NCBI GenBank assembly: GCA_049971805.1 | Contig: JBMFKU010000001.1 | Span: 70,498-134,497 of the forward strand | From: Caldisphaera sp. | GTDB lineage: Archaea > Thermoproteota > Thermoprotei_A > Sulfolobales > Acidilobaceae | DNA length: 64,000 nucleotides | Reading direction: 5' to 3' | Part shown: in pieces, positions 2,742 to 31,249 of the stretch | How positions within the stretch are numbered: position 1 is the first letter of the stretch | How the letters are laid out: each line of letters begins with the position of its first letter | Notes under the pieces: generated by a model | Told to the model about the DNA's origin: nothing | The model's database searches: none | Seen by the model: the letters and a program-made list of their open reading frames with translations, nothing else | Made by a program: the position numbers and the translations under genes

Positions 2742-3233
2742 ATTTTATCCCTCTGTTAGTATTAAATTACAGGCTTAAAAATCTATGTTTTTAAATGAAA
2801 ATTCTTTTAATTAAGAGATGCTGAATTCAGAGGCTGTTTTTCTCTTTGTAATAAAGGCGAATCCCCCTTATATTGGAAAAGATTAAAAAATATTAATCTA
2901 ATTTTTATATCATCGAATAAAATATGAAAATAGATACACAGGTTTAATAATATAAAACCTAATTAATGTTAAGAAGGATGACCAAAAATAAATTAAGATT
3001 TTTTAAATAATAGTGAATTCATCATTTAGGGTAGATATGTAGCTAAATCTATGTTTTTTATAAGATCTCACCTTCATGACAGAGAGGGCAGATTATTACG
3101 GTAAAGTGGTTTAAATATCTCATCCCTTGAGTTTACATAAAAATTAGGTATTAACGAACTCATAATAAAGGATGCATATAAAATGAAAAAGTCTGAAATA
3201 ATTTCTTAATTTCTCATTAATAGAAGTTGTATC

Positions 3234-4514
3234 TCACTTATTATTTGCTTTAACTATTAGTTTTAATCCTTCTATCCTTATAACTTCTACTTGATCTCCT
3301 ACATTAGCGCTGCAAGACTCGCATTTGGCTTTCCATATAATGCCTTCTATCCTTATCTCCCCTTCAGGATTTAAAGGAGATACAACAATTCCTCTCTTAC
3401 CTATTAATGATTCAGGGCCTGCTAGCTTATTTTTCTTTCTCAAAGGACCTGCCACCCATCTTATGTACAAACCTGCTACTACTCCAACAGCTCCAACACC
3501 AGTAATTTCTAGCTGAGATATATAACTATTAGGAACTCCGCTTGATATCATTGGTATACCTTCTGCCATTAAATAAATACCAACTGCAGCAATTATCATA
3601 CCTGCCATAAGAGCAAATCCATGGCCAAGCTTTAATTCTACAAGCATTACTGCTGCCCCTATAGCAATTAAAGAAATTCCTAAAACAGATGCACTAATTA
3701 TTTCAGCTCCAACCAAACCCGCAATTATTGCTACTATTCCTATTATAGTTAATATTATAGTTGGATGATATAGATCTAAAAGTATTGCTAAAACACCTAA
3801 AGTCATAAGAATGCCATCTAATGTCGAGTTGCTTAAAGCACTTAAAAATTGTTCATAATAATTTTCGCTAACATTTATTTTAGGGTTGTCAGATAGGTTC
3901 CATATTTCCAATGCCTGACTAAAAGAATTCGATATACCGTTTATTAGATGATACTGGTATGCTTGTTGTGAAGTAAAGGCTATATCATATAATACCATAT
4001 CCTGAGCAGCAGTAACATTTCTTCCCCATTTTTGGGCTAAACTTTCCATAAAACTAATCATGGCATCTTCTGTGTGATTTTGCTCTAAAGCAGTTCCACC
4101 AACTACTATTGGGGTTGACGGACCTATTTCTGACCCATCTCCCATAATAATTTGGTTTGTAGCCATAGCAATATAGCTTCCTGCTGAAGCAGCCAAACTA
4201 TTTGGTGGAACATATGTGTAAGTTGGTATTCCTGATTTATTTGCTTCTTCTATTGTATTAACTATATTAACCATATCGCTAAGATATCCCCCAGGCGTAT
4301 TCATTACTATCACTATTGCGCTTGCATTGTATGATTGTGCAATAGTTAAAGCTCTGTTTAACATATCTGAAGATCCTATATCAACTGTAGTATCAAAGTT
4401 TACTATTACTATTGGCTTTTTATTATTGTTCACATTTATTGAGTATGCTCTAATAGATAGGGCTAGAATTAAAATCAATAATATTACTATTACTATTGAT
4501 TTTTTTATGTTCAT
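3234..4514 (-). CDS. nfeD: long NfeD membrane-bound serine protease (ClpP-like + TM + OB fold)
   Basis: NTPGG, AASAGSYI, GPSTP, TM block, C-terminal GEIRIEGIIWKA; neighbours a stomatin gene. Confidence 0.88.
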   Translation of the reverse strand: MNIKKSIVIVILLILILALSIRAYSINVNNNKKPIVIVNFDTTVDIGSSDMLNRALTIAQSYNASAIVIVMNTPGGYLSDMVNIVNTIEEANKSGIPTYTYVPPNSLAASAGSYIAMATNQIIMGDGSEIGPSTPIVVGGTALEQNHTEDAMISFMESLAQKWGRNVTAAQDMVLYDIAFTSQQAYQYHLINGISNSFSQALEIWNLSDNPKINVSENYYEQFLSALSNSTLDGILMTLGVLAILLDLYHPTIILTIIGIVAIIAGLVGAEIISASVLGISLIAIGAAVMLVELKLGHGFALMAGMIIAAVGIYLMAEGIPMISSGVPNSYISQLEITGVGAVGVVAGLYIRWVAGPLRKKNKLAGPESLIGKRGIVVSPLNPEGEIRIEGIIWKAKCESCSANVGDQVEVIRIEGLKLIVKANNK

Positions 4515-14576: not shown

Positions 14577-15815
14577 ATGCATTGGGGAACGTTAATGTTA
14601 ATAGAGAAAGTTATACAAAACATGTTTAATAATTATAATTGGAAATTAAAAGAGGTAGACAGTTTTAATCCTCCTTATTATGATAGGAAATTAGCATTAT
14701 ATATACACGTTCCATTTTGTACGTCTCTTTGTCCGTTCTGTATATTTCATAGCATCTTATACAAACCGAGTCTAAAAAAAGGTTATTTTGATGCGCTCAA
14801 AAAAGAATTAGAGAAATATATATCAATGGGCTTTAATTTTTCTACTATATATATTGGTGGAGGTACGCCAACATTAGCTACAGAAGAAGTGTGCGATTTA
14901 TTGGATTACATAAAGGAGTACAATAAAATTGATGATATTTCTATCGAGGCTTCACCTTATGATATTAATGATGAAAAAGTTTCGGAGCTTGAAAAAACAG
15001 GCATAACAAGGTTATCATTAGGTGTTGAATCTTTTGTACCTGTTATACAAAGAAAAATAGGAAGACAACAAGTTAACACTGAGGAATTATTGGAAAAGAT
15101 AGATATAGCTTCAAAGATACCAACGTTAAATGTTGATATTCTTTTCAATATACCAGGTCAAAAAAAAGAAGATTTAGTTAATGAAATTGATATTGTTAAA
15201 AAAAGCAAGGCTAATCAAATAACCTTTTATCCAATTATGCCATCAATAAGACAAGCTCCTAAGGAATTTATGTATCCTGATGAAAAAAATGAAAAAATGT
15301 TATATAATGTGTTAACTAATCAATTTTCAGATAGCGATTATTATCAATCTACAGCGTGGACCTTTTCTAAAAATCAAGGCTCAATAGTTGATGAATATAT
15401 AATAGATAACGATGATTTCATAGGAGTTGGCACTGGCGCTATGAGCCATCTATCGCAATACTATTATGCAAATTCATTTAGTTTAGAAAAATATGAAAAA
15501 ATGATTAATAATGGTAAATTTTCCATTTCATTATTAAGAGAATTAAATCTTAAAGATCAAATTTATATATATTTAATTTATAGGTTGTATTCTTTAAAAA
15601 TTAATAAAAAAGAATTTGAAACTAAGTTTAACCATGATATATATCATTATCTTAGAAGTGAAATTAATCTATTAAGCTTCTTAGGTATAATAAAAGATGA
15701 TGGTAATTACTTTAAGGTTACAAATAATGGAAAGTACTATTCTAATTTGTTTATGAAATATTTATATATTAATATTTCAAATATAAGAAAGTATGCAATT
15801 CAAAATAAGATATGA
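14577..15815 (+). CDS. HemN/HemW-like radical SAM protein
   Basis: LYIHVPFCTSLCPFC (CxxxCxxC), YIGGGTPT, RLSLGVES; start may be ATG 14595. Confidence 0.85.
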   Translation: MHWGTLMLIEKVIQNMFNNYNWKLKEVDSFNPPYYDRKLALYIHVPFCTSLCPFCIFHSILYKPSLKKGYFDALKKELEKYISMGFNFSTIYIGGGTPTLATEEVCDLLDYIKEYNKIDDISIEASPYDINDEKVSELEKTGITRLSLGVESFVPVIQRKIGRQQVNTEELLEKIDIASKIPTLNVDILFNIPGQKKEDLVNEIDIVKKSKANQITFYPIMPSIRQAPKEFMYPDEKNEKMLYNVLTNQFSDSDYYQSTAWTFSKNQGSIVDEYIIDNDDFIGVGTGAMSHLSQYYYANSFSLEKYEKMINNGKFSISLLRELNLKDQIYIYLIYRLYSLKINKKEFETKFNHDIYHYLRSEINLLSFLGIIKDDGNYFKVTNNGKYYSNLFMKYLYINISNIRKYAIQNKI

Positions 15816-15984
15816 CATTAAATTTAATTACATTATGTAAATAAAAATTAAAAATTTAACATTTTAGTTAAAATATAAAAATTTATGTAGATGTTTTAGA
15901 CTAGGTAAAAAGAAATATTTAAAAGGCAGAAACAATAAAAAAATATTAGTAATTTAGGTGGGGTAGATGCAAAGCCAAATTTAA

Positions 15985-16075
15985 ATTTAGTTGGTCATAA
16001 TTTTATCACTCATTTAGTTGGTCATAATTTTATCACTCATTTAGTTGGTCATAATTTTATCACTCATTTAGTTGG
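15985..16075 (+). repeat. exact tandem repeat, 3 x 27 bp (ATTTAGTTGGTCATAATTTTATCACTC) plus 10-bp partial
   Basis: units at 15985, 16012 and 16039, partial at 16066; no spacers. Confidence 0.97.
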
Positions 16076-16095
16076 GGTGATTTCATTATGACAAA
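16045..16095 (+). promoter_or_regulatory. predicted hairpin sequestering the ilvB SD and start codon
   Basis: GTCATAAT pairs with ATTATGAC (8 bp), 3x3 internal loop, ATCACTC pairs with GGGTGAT (7 bp including one G-U), 9-nt loop. Confidence 0.6.
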
Positions 16096-17786
16096 TGGAT
16101 CATCATTGGTTGTTCAATCATTAAAAAAAGAAGGAGTAAAAACAATATTTGGAATACCAGGACTGTCAAATATGCCAATATATGATGCGCTCTATGATTA
16201 TGTTAATTCTGGCGAAATAAGGCAAATATTAATGAAACATGAGCAGGCAGCAGCACATGCAGCCGATGGTTTTTCAAGAGCATCTGGATTTCCAGGCGTT
16301 TGTACTGCTACATCAGGTCCAGGCGCAATAAATTTAGCAACAGGACTAATAACTGCATACTGGGATAGCTCTCCTCTAATAGCAATTACTGGGCAGGTCC
16401 CTAGAAACTCTATGGGAAAAATGGCGTTTCAAGAGGCAGATGTTATGGGTGTTATGGAAAATATAACTAAATATATAGTAAAAATCAAAAATATAAAAGA
16501 AATACCGATTTGGATTAAAAATTCATTTTATATATCAATGACTGGAAGAAAAGGGCCTGTTGTAATAGATATTCCAAGGGATATATTGCAAGAAAGTATT
16601 GATGATATAGAATGGCCAGAAAAACCAAGTGTCAAAGGTTATAAAGAATTTATAACAGAAGTTGATTTAGAAAAAATCAAGAAAGTAGCGAAGATGTTGC
16701 TTGAGGCTGAAAGACCAATAATTGTTGTAGGTACTGGGGTTATGTATTCAAACGCCTATAATCAAGTATTAAACTTATCAGAGCAATTACTTGTTCCAAT
16801 AGTTTCAACTCTTCCTGGAAAAGCCTCAATACCTAATGATTTTCCACTTTACTTTGGTGTAATAGGCTATTATGGCAGGGCTGAAGCCAATAGGGCTCTG
16901 CTCGAGTCAGACTTTATGTTAATATTAGGCTCCAGAATTAGCGATAGATCATTTACATCACTTGACGAAATTACAGAAACCAAAAAGAAGATAGTTATGG
17001 TAAACTTAGATCCTGTAGATAATGAAAAATATAACATAGCAAGCTTAACATTAAATGGTGATATAAAAATAATTTTAAATCAAATAATCGATGCCATTAG
17101 TAAAATCAAATTAGAAAAGAAAGATAAGAATTTATGGATTAAAAATATAACTGAATGGAAAGATGAATATTCTAAGTATTATTATATAGAAGATAAGAAT
17201 TACATGAAACCATGGAAGATATTAAAAACTATAAGAGAAGTCTTGCCTAGGGATGCAATTGTTACAACAGGTGTTGGAGAGCATCAAATGTTTGCAGAAG
17301 TCTTTTGGGATGTACTTGAACCAAGGACATTCTTTACTTCGTCAGGTATGGGTACAATGGGTTTTGGATTTCCAGCAGCTATGGGAGCTAAAGTAGCGAG
17401 ACCTGATAAGATAGTCGTCAATCTAGACGGTGATGGCTCTTTTTTAATGACAGGCAATAATTTGGCAACTGCGGTTGATGAAAATATACCTGTTATCTCA
17501 GTAATATTTGATAATAGAACTCTAGGTTTGGTAAGACAAGTTCAAGATCTATTTTTTGGAAAAAGAATAGTAGGGGTTGATTTCGGTATGTCTCCGGATT
17601 TTGTTAAATATGCAGAGTCTTTTGGGGCTATTGGATATAATGCAGAATCATATGAAGGTTTAGAAAAATCATTAAAAGATGCAATCAAAAGCAATATGCC
17701 TTCAGTAATAAGAGTACCGATTAATAGGGAAGAATTAGCTTTACCAACGTTACCTCCTGGAGGTAAATTAAAGCAGGTGATATTAA

Positions 17787-17800
<14 letters not shown>
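16088..17800 (+). CDS. ilvB: acetolactate synthase large subunit
   Basis: HEQAAAHAADG, TSGPGA, FQEAD, GVGEHQM, GMGTMGFG, GDGSF..DNRTLGLVRQVQ; upstream of ilvC. Confidence 0.93.
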
Positions 17801-19155
<1,355 letters not shown>

Positions 19156-29527: not shown

Positions 29528-31249
29528 GTGATTATGGGAAGAATAACTGGTGGTGAAGTTATAAAGCGCTTGTTGGTTAATGAAGGTATTGATTACGTTT
29601 TTGGAGTTCCTGGAGATCAGTTATATCCATTATTAGATGCTTTTTATGACAAAAAAATAAAATTCATTACTTTTCATCATGAAGCTGCTGCAGCCCATGC
29701 AGCTGATGGATATGCAAGAATAACAGGAAAGCCTGGAGTTGTTATAGCAACTGTTGGTCCTGGCGCAGCAAATTTGATAGGAGGAGTTTATCCTGCTTTT
29801 GCTGAAGGTATACCAATGGTTATAATAACAGCTCAAAATCAATCATGGAAATCATATCCAGATCATGGATCGATGCAAGCATTAGATCAAATTAATTTGT
29901 TAAAGCCTGTAACAAAATGGAACGCCTATGTTAGCCAGTGGAATAGAATACCTGAATTATTTTACTGGGCTTTTAGGAAAGCTCTAACTGGTAGACCAGG
30001 ACCTGTTCATCTAGATGTTGCAGTAGATGTTTTATATCAAACAGGAGATGAAAACAATGTAACGATATTAAAACCAGAAAATTATAGACCATTAAGTGGT
30101 CCTTCAGGAAATCCGAATTTAATAGATGAAGCAGCGAGGCTTTTAACAAAAGCAAAAATGCCTTTAATTCATTTAGGTGGTGGGATTTTAAGATCTAATG
30201 CAACAGAAGAAGCTCAAATGCTTGCTGATTATCTGAAAGCCATTGTTACTACATCAATTGGAGGTAGAGGTAGTATACCAGAAGATTATCCATCGATTCT
30301 TCTTCCATCATTACCAGGTGCTTTAGAAGCTCAATCAGAGGCTGACGTAATTTTAATTGCCGGTTCAAGATTAGGAGATCTGGACTATTGGGGAAAACAA
30401 CCAGCTTGGGGTGATTTTAAAGATCAAAAGACAATTCATATAGATATTACTGGAGAAGACATAGGATTAAATAGACCTGTAGAAGTAGGTATAGTTGGAG
30501 ACTTAAAAATAGTTTTAAGTCAATTATTAGAAGCTGTTAAGAAATATAGTCCGCCTAGAAAAGACTATCCAGAAAAGCTTGAAAAATACAAAGAATCTGA
30601 AAGGGAATACCTAAAGTCGATGGAAGATTTATCTTATTCCAATTCTATTCCAATTCATCCCTTAAGAGTTGTCAGAGAAGCCAGAGAGTTTTTCCCAAAG
30701 GATTCAATAACCATAATAGATGGAGGAAATACAACAGTTTGGGCTTCATATTTAAACAGAATTTATATGCCTAGAACTTATTTAAGCACTGCTAGCGGAG
30801 ATTCTGGTCATCTCGGATCAGGAATTTCATTTTCGATAGCAGCAAAGCTAACAAACCCGGATAAATATGTTTATGCAATAACAGGAGATGGTGCCTTTGG
30901 ATTTCATGTAGCCGAGTTAGAAACAGCTTGCAGAGAGAATTTGCAAATTACTATTTTGGTTTTAAATGATAGCTCATGGGGAATGATCAAAGCTGGCCAA
31001 ACCCTATATTACAGTAAAAGGCATGTGGGAGTTGATTTCTCCGAAATAAGATATGATTTGATAGCTGAAGCCATGGGATGCCATGGAGAATATGTAACTA
31101 AACCAGAAGATATAAAACCTGCATTAAGAAGGTCTATAGATTCTAAGAAGACATCAGTAATTAATGTTATTGTAGATAAAAATGCGATTCCTCCTCATTT
31201 CGAAATTTTAGCCGGTATTTGGTTAGAGGGTGTTGAAATGCCTTCTTAA
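29528..31249 (+). CDS. ThDP-dependent enzyme (ALS-like decarboxylase/lyase family)
   Basis: HEAAAAHAADGYAR, GPGAAN, GPVHLD, GDGAFGF..LNDSSWGMI. Confidence 0.88.
   Translation: MIMGRITGGEVIKRLLVNEGIDYVFGVPGDQLYPLLDAFYDKKIKFITFHHEAAAAHAADGYARITGKPGVVIATVGPGAANLIGGVYPAFAEGIPMVIITAQNQSWKSYPDHGSMQALDQINLLKPVTKWNAYVSQWNRIPELFYWAFRKALTGRPGPVHLDVAVDVLYQTGDENNVTILKPENYRPLSGPSGNPNLIDEAARLLTKAKMPLIHLGGGILRSNATEEAQMLADYLKAIVTTSIGGRGSIPEDYPSILLPSLPGALEAQSEADVILIAGSRLGDLDYWGKQPAWGDFKDQKTIHIDITGEDIGLNRPVEVGIVGDLKIVLSQLLEAVKKYSPPRKDYPEKLEKYKESEREYLKSMEDLSYSNSIPIHPLRVVREAREFFPKDSITIIDGGNTTVWASYLNRIYMPRTYLSTASGDSGHLGSGISFSIAAKLTNPDKYVYAITGDGAFGFHVAELETACRENLQITILVLNDSSWGMIKAGQTLYYSKRHVGVDFSEIRYDLIAEAMGCHGEYVTKPEDIKPALRRSIDSKKTSVINVIVDKNAIPPHFEILAGIWLEGVEMPS

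Follow-up and report, generated by a model that had tools for sequence, protein, structure and literature searches.

Ribosome-sensed control of amino acid operons is a textbook feature of bacteria. The enterobacterial leader-peptide attenuators ivbL, ilvL and leuL contain codons for the products of the respective pathways, and, in translational attenuation of the ermC/cat type, the Shine-Dalgarno (SD) sequence and AUG codon are enclosed in a hairpin that is opened by a ribosome on the leader. Here we analyze the leader of the ilvB-ilvN-ilvC operon in a 64,000-nt stretch of DNA (hereafter, the window) of the archaeon Caldisphaera sp. (contig JBMFKU010000001.1), where a short upstream open reading frame (uORF; MQSQI*, the asterisk denoting the stop codon) is followed by a perfect tandem repeat of a 27-bp unit and then by the ilvB gene. 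A preliminary description of this region, made without database searches, presented it as a candidate translational attenuator in which the repeated units themselves, rich in codons for branched-chain amino acids (BCAA), are the sensor. Comparison with orthologous leaders points to a different arrangement, one that combines the uORF with a putative ribosomal frameshift.

Several elements of such an arrangement are described in the available text of a 2016 review on frameshifting (PMC5009743). SD-like elements stimulate -1 shifts from a distance of 9-14 nt and +1 shifts from 3 nt; in the bacterial autoregulatory frameshift of prfB, the gene for release factor 2 (RF2), the stimulator is such an upstream SD-like element. 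Hungry codons, that is, codons slow for lack of the aminoacyl-tRNA, promote shifting where re-pairing permits, and, on the use of such shifting in starvation, the same text states that 'no examples are known'. Our literature search, with supplements and many subscription papers outside its reach, turned up bacterial ilvB uORFs and attenuators but no archaeal (Crenarchaeota) counterpart and no amino-acid-sensing frameshift leader.

Conserved architecture of the ilvB leaders

A search for IlvB orthologs in 325 genomes of the same order (E up to 1e-150) produced matches in 73: 46 of the 47 genomes of family f13, 15 of the 26 of f5, 8 of the 52 of f3 and, in f1, the family of the window itself, 3 of 66 in addition to the window. 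Two genomes (G271 and G306), in which the matches lacked the N-terminus, were left out, so that 71 leaders from four families were compared. Nearly all of these contain a promoter element, an SD and then a very short ORF. In 69 of the 71, this uORF ends with Gln, Val or Ile, zero to four more codons and a stop; two of the 69 (L156 and L158) are identical in sequence, and in 67 of the resulting 68 distinct leaders, the number of additional codons is zero to two. The form found in the window is MQSQI*; its congener L005 has MRSQI*, and the family-wide forms are MELQVx* in f5, (M)EV[LRFP]QIH* in f3 and M[IM]G[DGE]x[TS]LQ[VI](x)* in f13. Gln is preceded by Leu in 61 of the 68 leaders, and the conserved uORF contains a single Val/Ile codon. 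The reading frame is preserved although the codon after Val/Ile differs between leaders, as does the stop codon, a pattern characteristic of translated sequences. Thus, the SD-led ATG mini-ORF at 15967, which the preliminary description mentioned in passing and correctly placed in the same frame as the repeat units, turns out to be the conserved element.

In the two leaders without Q-[V/I] (f1g8) and in one deeper relative (L011), the -1 frame discussed below is open as well; their short uORFs are different, namely (M)VLK*, (M)VLNISTSI* and MPLELR*, and contain Val/Leu codons.

At the end of the uORF, all 68 distinct leaders share C-CAA-(G/A)-U without exception. Immediately before CAA stands CTC, AGC, CGC, TTC or CCC; this codon specifies one of five amino acids (L, S, R, F, P) and always ends with C. 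The constraint falls on the base that the tRNA in the P (peptidyl) site would meet after slipping back by one nucleotide. The codon after CAA, which would occupy the A (aminoacyl) site, is Val or Ile in 68 of 68 leaders, never Leu (GTC in 30, ATT in 22, GTT in 8, ATC in 5, GTA in 3). These are not the codons preferred by the enzyme gene: GTC is used at the site in 17 of 19 cases vs 8% of the Val codons in ilvB, and ATA in none of 14 vs 58% of the Ile codons. Taken together, pyrimidine-ending (Y) codons occupy the site in 32 of 33 cases vs 39% in the background, although the significance is overstated because the sequences are related. Every one of the 68 distinct leaders contains GGTG upstream of CAA, at a distance of 9-18 nt; this distance is exactly 11 nt in all 44 f13 leaders, where the uORF is longer and GGTG lies within it. 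Besides serving the uORF, the GGTGGGG of the window may stimulate a backward slip.

The other conserved feature is the frame that such a slip would open. In the -1 frame, read from the invariant C before CAA such that C-CAA-RU becomes CCA-ARU, all 69 leaders (68 distinct sequences) are open as far as the ilvB start, over 63-123 nt; the uORF's own frame (frame 0) has on average 4.7 stops across the spacer in the 68 distinct leaders. The joint probability of an open -1 frame is about 1e-13, calculated as a product over 18 genera from dinucleotide-preserving shuffles, with only the most permissive leader of each genus included, which makes the estimate conservative. In 66 of the 68 leaders, the -1 frame stops between -14 and +14 nt from the ilvB start, and in 58 of the 68, it contains no ATG, GTG or TTG upstream of CCA. 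Thus, an overlapping -1 ORF that in most leaders has no start codon is kept open up to the enzyme gene. In 27 of the 44 f13 leaders, the -1 frame is closed by TGA 9 nt before CCA; accordingly, entry into it is possible solely from the final uORF codons. The length of the spacer is a multiple of three in 35 of the 44 f13 leaders, across 13 different lengths (manual count).

Only the openness of this frame, which we refer to as the conduit, is maintained. In 16 pairs of leaders, substitutions in the conduit are spread evenly over the three codon positions (57/64/64), so there is no sign of selection on the encoded peptide, and the content of Ile, Leu and Val (29%) is ordinary. In the window, the conduit extends from 15975 to 16091, reads PNLNLVGHNFITHLVGHNFITHLVGHNFITHLVGVISL* in full, and its TGA (16089-16091) overlaps the ilvB ATG as ATGA. 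A scan of the window genome, covering 1116 SD-led candidate starts of long ORFs, identified the full architecture once, at ilvB. Across the 47 f13 genomes, the cassette pattern matches at the ilvB site in 43 and produces 6 stray matches elsewhere. The looser pattern of an SD, ATG and Q-[ILV] gives 66 matches in the window genome, mostly due to chance, and no such cassette is found upstream of its sole HMGL-like (leuA-type) gene. This architecture, a uORF ending at a Val/Ile codon and an open -1 frame that leads from it to ilvB, and its conservation are direct observations.

Some peculiarities of individual families are worth recording. In all f3 leaders examined (L008, L155, L160-L163, L172, L173), the entire uORF lies within a conserved hairpin (consensus fold -8.2) in which CCAA is joined to UUGG in the region of the start codon and the variable L/R/F/P codon is in the loop. 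The GC-rich relative L013 carries, about 80 nt upstream of ilvB, a 35-bp tandem duplication of the SD-uORF cassette that yields MSNVPA* and MSNIW*. In f13 (for example, L115, L006 and L126), the +1 frame begins about 100 nt upstream of ilvB with the GTG inside GGTG, just after in-frame stops, and all stop triplets of the f13 spacers are in the uORF's own frame. The core of the uORF recurs in the spacers somewhat more often than expected (its own 6-mer 6 times vs 2.7), a weak excess among related sequences. The shift-site core CAA[GA]U occurs 35 times in the spacers of the 68 leaders vs 19.8 +/- 4.3 in shuffles, again a weak signal from related sequences, and L009 and L159 each have a further copy immediately upstream of the ilvB SD.

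A putative hungry-codon frameshift switch

From this architecture, we infer a slip on the uORF, a response to the supply of Val/Ile, reinitiation at ilvB and, in the window, a role of a hairpin in vivo, which would be combined in the following way. A private promoter near 15918 would drive the leader, and ribosomes would load at GGUGGGG and AUG 15967 and translate the five-codon MQSQI*. With plentiful Ile-tRNA, the ribosome would stop at UAA 15982 and depart, and the SD and AUG of ilvB would stay paired with one of the three identical repeat units. With scarce Ile-tRNA, the ribosome would pause while its P site holds CAA and its A site AUU, and the contact of the nearby SD with the anti-SD would help it to slip back by one base, from C-CAA to CCA-A (the 3' tail of 16S rRNA was not found in the window genome). 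The shifted ribosome would read the start-less -1 frame across the three units, unwinding the hairpin, and would terminate at the UGA that overlaps the ilvB AUG, with ilvB then translated by termination-reinitiation. We consider this course of events for the window, a hungry-codon slip after which the repeats are read through, the hairpin is melted and translation restarts at ilvB, to be slightly more probable than not. For the more general proposition, namely, an order-wide switch of ilvBNC (model-sized Sulfolobaceae-like genomes included) by hungry-codon -1 frameshifting at C-CAA-RUY, with a triplicated anti-SD/anti-AUG segment that makes ilvB dependent on shifted ribosomes in the window lineage, the chances seem to us evenly balanced.

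Several observations weigh against this proposal. The leaders are related, so all the counts overstate their independence. The site C-CAA-RUY is not a canonical X-XXY-YYZ slippery heptamer, and tRNA-Gln would regain only two of its three base pairs once it had slipped; among the tRNA-Gln genes of the incomplete window genome, only the CTG anticodon was detected, and tRNA-Gln(UUG) was not found. According to the available text of PMC5009743, a slow A site is more important in +1 than in -1 shifting. No general stimulatory structure is predicted downstream of the site (median z 0.13). In 10 of the 68 leaders, the -1 frame does contain some start codon, and in f13, and only there, the +1 frame is open as well (44 of 44), which makes the direction of the shift ambiguous in that family. 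The ilvB gene has a strong SD of its own that is not masked in 64 of the 68 leaders; we speculate that, in these unmasked leaders, the conduit might be needed to keep translation coupled to transcription. In the window, the hairpin is marginal at 75 C (-1.5 kcal/mol), and the extra copies of the repeat add little, since a single-copy leader constructed in silico masks the SD nearly as well (0.60 vs 0.65 at 75 C). Finally, the slip, the start of the transcript and the response to amino acids are all deduced from sequence.

Among described systems, the putative switch resembles prfB in that translation of a short first frame soon terminates if no shift occurs, and in the presence of an upstream SD-like stimulator (PMC5009743, available text). 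It differs from prfB in that the slow codon is a sense codon for Val or Ile rather than a stop, the direction is -1 rather than +1, the SD-like element is 9-18 nt away rather than 3 nt, and the shifted frame leads to the start codon of the enzyme but does not encode the enzyme. The -1 direction and an SD-like element some 9-14 nt upstream are shared with frameshifting of the dnaX type (same source), from which the ilvB leaders are set apart by the absence of an X-XXY-YYZ heptamer and of a general downstream structure, as well as by the proposed dependence on an empty A site. As in the ilv and leu leader-peptide attenuators, including ivbL, ilvL, leuL and the Corynebacterium ilvB uORF (PMC10272879 and PMC11857589, available text), a small leader ORF would sense the supply of the products of the pathway through codons for these products. 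In contrast to these, there is one test codon instead of a run, we found no conserved terminator and antiterminator hairpins and no excess of structure downstream of the uORF, and the proposed read-out is a change of frame followed by reinitiation instead of transcription termination. The likeness to the ermC/cat type is confined to the window, where the SD and AUG of ilvB are in a hairpin that an upstream ribosome could open; the differences are that the masking is not conserved, that the ribosome would arrive in a shifted frame, and that neither an antibiotic nor nascent-peptide arrest is involved. With termination-reinitiation coupling (ATGA, TAATG), the leaders share the stop of an upstream ORF within 14 nt of the ilvB start (66 of 68), except that here the upstream ORF is devoid of its own start codon in 58 of the 68.

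If the proposal is correct, these leaders would represent a natural amino acid sensor built on frameshifting, a class without known examples according to the available text of PMC5009743, as well as ribosome-mediated attenuation in Crenarchaeota. The logic of gene control would be new, a sense-codon analogue of the RF2 switch, in which the 'spacer' of a leader acts as a coding conduit. The architecture is simple and sharply defined, and among its carriers are genomes that, by size and completeness, point to cultivable model species, so the proposal is directly testable.

The triple repeat and the hairpin of the window

The preliminary description reported an exact triplication of a 27-bp unit, and Tandem Repeats Finder agrees (3.4 copies, 100% matches). 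The window contains three copies of the 21-nt core of this unit (0.01 expected), and the rest of the 1.52-Mb genome contains none; allowing up to 3 mismatches, there are 3 forward and no reverse matches. In the conduit frame, each unit reads LVGHNFITH, that is, nine codons. The observation that the unit is nearly the reverse complement of the ilvB SD and start codon (16075-16095) also holds, with 16 of 21 matches and one G-U by hand comparison, as does the hairpin of the last copy that would hide both. Folding yields a two-stem structure with an energy of -16.9 kcal/mol (z -2.74, equaled in 3 of 200 shuffles), and units 1 and 2 are able to substitute for unit 3 in the pairing with the SD and AUG. 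The masking of the SD at 70 C is above chance (z 4.0, with 1 of 40 spacer shuffles as good). The uORF ends 7 nt before unit 1, so a ribosome on the uORF would be unable to cover units 2 and 3.

A recent expansion is suggested by the identity of the copies and by the 10-nt direct repeat on the flanks of the unit, from which slippage could have started; 27 nt correspond to nine codons of the conserved frame, so the repeat reads as an in-frame expansion. We propose that the repeat is a recent in-frame expansion of a conduit segment that carries the anti-SD, rather than a set of sensor mini-ORFs. The congener L005 contains, about 70 nt upstream of ilvB, a different, imperfect tandem repeat (21 nt x 2), also in the conduit frame, with seven codons per unit. 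Tandem expansions thus seem to be tolerated, or useful, provided that the frame is kept; for annotation, the conduit frame would explain why in-frame 27- and 21-nt tandem repeats persist in leaders.

The masking is not a conserved property of the leaders. The preliminary description called for conserved pairing, and for a single-copy unit with conserved Val/Ile/Leu codons, in related leaders; neither was found. The 27-bp unit is absent from all 70 other orthologous leaders, and SD masking across the 68 distinct leaders at 70 C has a median z of -0.29, with z above 2 in only 4, including the window. As a general mechanism, SD masking was therefore rejected. The other three cases with strong masking belong to a single genus, g90 (L127, L128 and L130, z 4.2, 4.8 and 2.0), an apparent second, independent origin.

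These data bear on an alternative account of the window that leaves the frameshift untouched, in which the triple repeat is a neutral product of recent slippage, tolerated because 27 is a multiple of 3, and the pairing that it forms with the SD and AUG is without function. The identity of the copies and the flanking direct repeat, the selection on openness of the conduit rather than on its peptide, the unrelated in-frame repeat in L005, the lack of conservation of SD masking and the near indifference of the predicted masking to copy number all fit this account. What it leaves unexplained is that the observed pairing is better than that of every spacer shuffle at 65 and 75 C (0 of 100 reach it, compared with 4 of 100 at 37 C), that strong masking evolved independently in g90, and that, with the two extra units removed, the spacer would shrink to 49 nt, below the 63-123 nt range of all 68 leaders. 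We regard a functionless repeat as less than evenly probable but far from negligible.

Alternatives to a regulated frameshift

The invariant architecture would also be accounted for by a constitutive shift, with a fixed fraction of slipping ribosomes that sets the level of ilvB or protects the mRNA without any sensing of Val/Ile; an SD-like element at a spacing typical of -1 shifts could drive such a fixed rate. A constitutive shift does not call for Val or Ile at this position in 68 of 68 leaders, with no Leu or any other residue, nor for the strong bias to codons that are rare in ilvB, and these amino acids are exactly what the regulated operon makes. On these grounds, we consider a constitutive shift unlikely.

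The uORF could also act without any change of frame, if a ribosome stalled at the Val/Ile codon, or terminating after it, covered the RNA directly behind the stop and thereby controlled premature transcription termination, mRNA decay or initiation at ilvB. The single conserved Val/Ile codon shortly before the stop is compatible with this possibility, bacterial ilvB uORF attenuators are known (PMC10272879 and PMC11857589, available text), and in 31 of the 44 f13 leaders, a run of at least four T follows the uORF stop at a distance of 0-22 nt (manual count). Outside f13, however, such a run does not follow the stop in f3, f5 or L005 leaders, and no conserved hairpins were found. The openness of the -1 frame in 68 of 68 leaders, its end at the ilvB start and the invariance of the base before CAA would all be left without explanation. 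An uORF working in its own frame alone therefore seems quite improbable to us.

The model of the preliminary description has the repeat units translated as mini-ORFs that start with TTG, such that ribosomes stalled on their BCAA codons melt the hairpin and the number of copies tunes repression. The mini-ORFs exist as described: the frame of the uORF continues through the repeats as I*LVIILSLI*LVIILSLI*LVIILSLI*LG*, a stop-to-start succession in which six of the seven codons after each TTG stand for Val, Ile or Leu. The hairpin is real and non-random, and L005 has, in the same frame and inside its own 21-nt repeat, a TTG ORF with 8 BCAA codons of 13. However, no SD precedes the TTG codons of the window, the frame is the one interrupted by 4.7 stops on average in the relatives, no such ORF is conserved outside the genus, and L005 shows no SD masking (z -0.7). 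The BCAA richness itself carries little weight because the three copies are not independent and amount to one nine-codon unit of T-rich DNA. The single-copy construct described above speaks against tuning by copy number. Hence, the mini-ORFs as the sensor are very improbable. What stands of the original interpretation is the long leader of ilvBNC behind its own promoter, which the relatives keep, the translated-looking uORF with a Val/Ile codon and the masking above chance in the window, together with the idea that a ribosome crossing the units unmasks ilvB, albeit in a different frame, from a different point of entry and with a different sensor.

A control at the level of DNA, with the units as binding sites of a regulator or with a duplicated TATA-like box (ATAATTTTAT) as an internal promoter for an ilvB transcript with a short leader, is hardly credible, despite the direct repeats, the inverted repeat that overlaps the ilvB start and the A/T-rich TATA-like stretch of each unit, given that the conserved promoter is some 45-130 nt upstream of the units, that the units are absent from all relatives, that the conserved ilvB SD implies a leadered mRNA, and that the conservation of the frame would not be accounted for.

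Other features of the leaders and RNA data

Several additional candidates for a shared feature were discarded. Pairing of the C-rich end of the uORF with the ilvB SD was rejected because the SD and AUG rarely pair with the uORF; for the most part, they pair with variable spacer or with local sequence. Spacer mini-ORFs rich in BCAA codons are not conserved, being present only in the window and its congener L005. An oligo-T terminator just after the uORF is found in many f13 leaders but in no f3 or f5 leader and not in L005, so it is not general; in the window, there is one run of four T at +16 after the uORF stop. The consensus folds of the f13 and f5 leaders have energies of -2.35 and -1.6, respectively, and consensus folding identified nothing shared beyond the small hairpin around the f3 uORF. 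Searching 15700-16300 against Rfam with cmscan (E up to 10) returned only five sub-threshold chance matches.

RNA data consist of 24 runs from one study, in the form of contigs; four of these were compared over positions 2800-3800 of L126, where the leader occupies approximately 3208-3400. In X3 and X19, one contig spans the entire region, which does not prove a single transcript and may include DNA; X13 has no coverage of the leader. In X1, a contig with 608x coverage reaches from ilvB to its end at position 3323, which is about 5 nt into the uORF, and the sequence beyond is covered by a 33x contig; because these are contigs from a single study, this end is no evidence of a transcript start.

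The locus and its surroundings

The region is the 5' leader of the ilvB-ilvN-ilvC mRNA in a small, AT-rich archaeon, the window genome being an incomplete assembly with 31% G+C. The gene on the 5' side of the leader encodes a radical-SAM protein and ends at 15815. The features of the locus are listed in Table 1. The start of the transcript is predicted at about 15945-15950. A AAAGnTTTAAAAA-type promoter element is located 32-72 nt upstream of the uORF start in the relatives and 48 nt upstream in the window. In the orthologous leaders inspected for it, a GGTG- or GAGG-type element is located upstream of the ilvB start. The segment before the SD of the uORF (15951-15963) resembles the one before the SD of ilvB (16066-16078), both being of the ATTTAG-(G/T)-TGGGGT type, a likeness that might go back to an ancient duplication of the ribosome-binding segment.

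Table 1. Predicted features of the ilvBNC locus and its leader, in window coordinates (SD, Shine-Dalgarno; BRE, transcription factor B recognition element)
Feature	Coordinates	Strand	Basis
TATA/BRE-like promoter element, TTTAAAA core 15918-15924	15914..15925	+	sequence; counterparts in relatives
SD-like GGTGGGG of the uORF	15957..15963	+	sequence; GGTG kept in relatives
uORF MQSQI* (frame 0)	15967..15984	+	translation; counterparts in 69 of the 71 leaders compared
Proposed -1 shift site C-CAA-AUU (P site, Gln codon; A site, Ile 'test' codon)	15975..15981	+	invariance of C-CAA-(G/A)-U
Start-less -1 'conduit' ORF PNLNLVGHNFITH(x3)LVGVISL*	15975..16091	+	translation; openness of the frame in relatives
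Perfect tandem repeat, 27 bp x 3.4, nine codons per unit, in the conduit frame	15985..16075	+	Tandem Repeats Finder
Predicted hairpin, with one arm in the last repeat unit (16048-16065) and the other over the ilvB SD and AUG (16075-16092)	16048..16092	+	folding
ilvB SD, GGGGTGA	16074..16080	+	sequence
Regulated operon	16088..19155	+	ORFs and Pfam domains
ilvB	16088-17800	+	Pfam TPP_enzyme N, M and C
ilvN-like small subunit with an ACT domain	17787-18167	+	Pfam ACT_5
ilvC	18151-19155	+	Pfam KARI_N and KARI_C

IlvB of the window is 71% identical to both that of the congener and that of an f13 genome, and the uORF cassette of the window resembles the f5 type. The distribution of IlvB in the family of the window, with orthologs in only 3 of the 66 other genomes, is patchy. 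It is possible that the leader was transferred between lineages along with the operon.

Beyond the sampled order, a scan of named genomes with the IlvB alignment identified only distant lineages (at most 45% identity) in which ilvB is located behind another gene and has no free leader. In metagenomes, 11 loci were detected, the best with 69% identity, none of them close enough to reveal variants in the copy number of the repeat. Among the nine of these that were examined, five carry an f5-type uORF (identified by script) and three others an f13-type one (by eye).

About 12 kb 3' of the ilv operon, at 29549-31183, the window encodes a second acetolactate-synthase-like enzyme dependent on thiamine diphosphate, which is 32% identical to IlvB.

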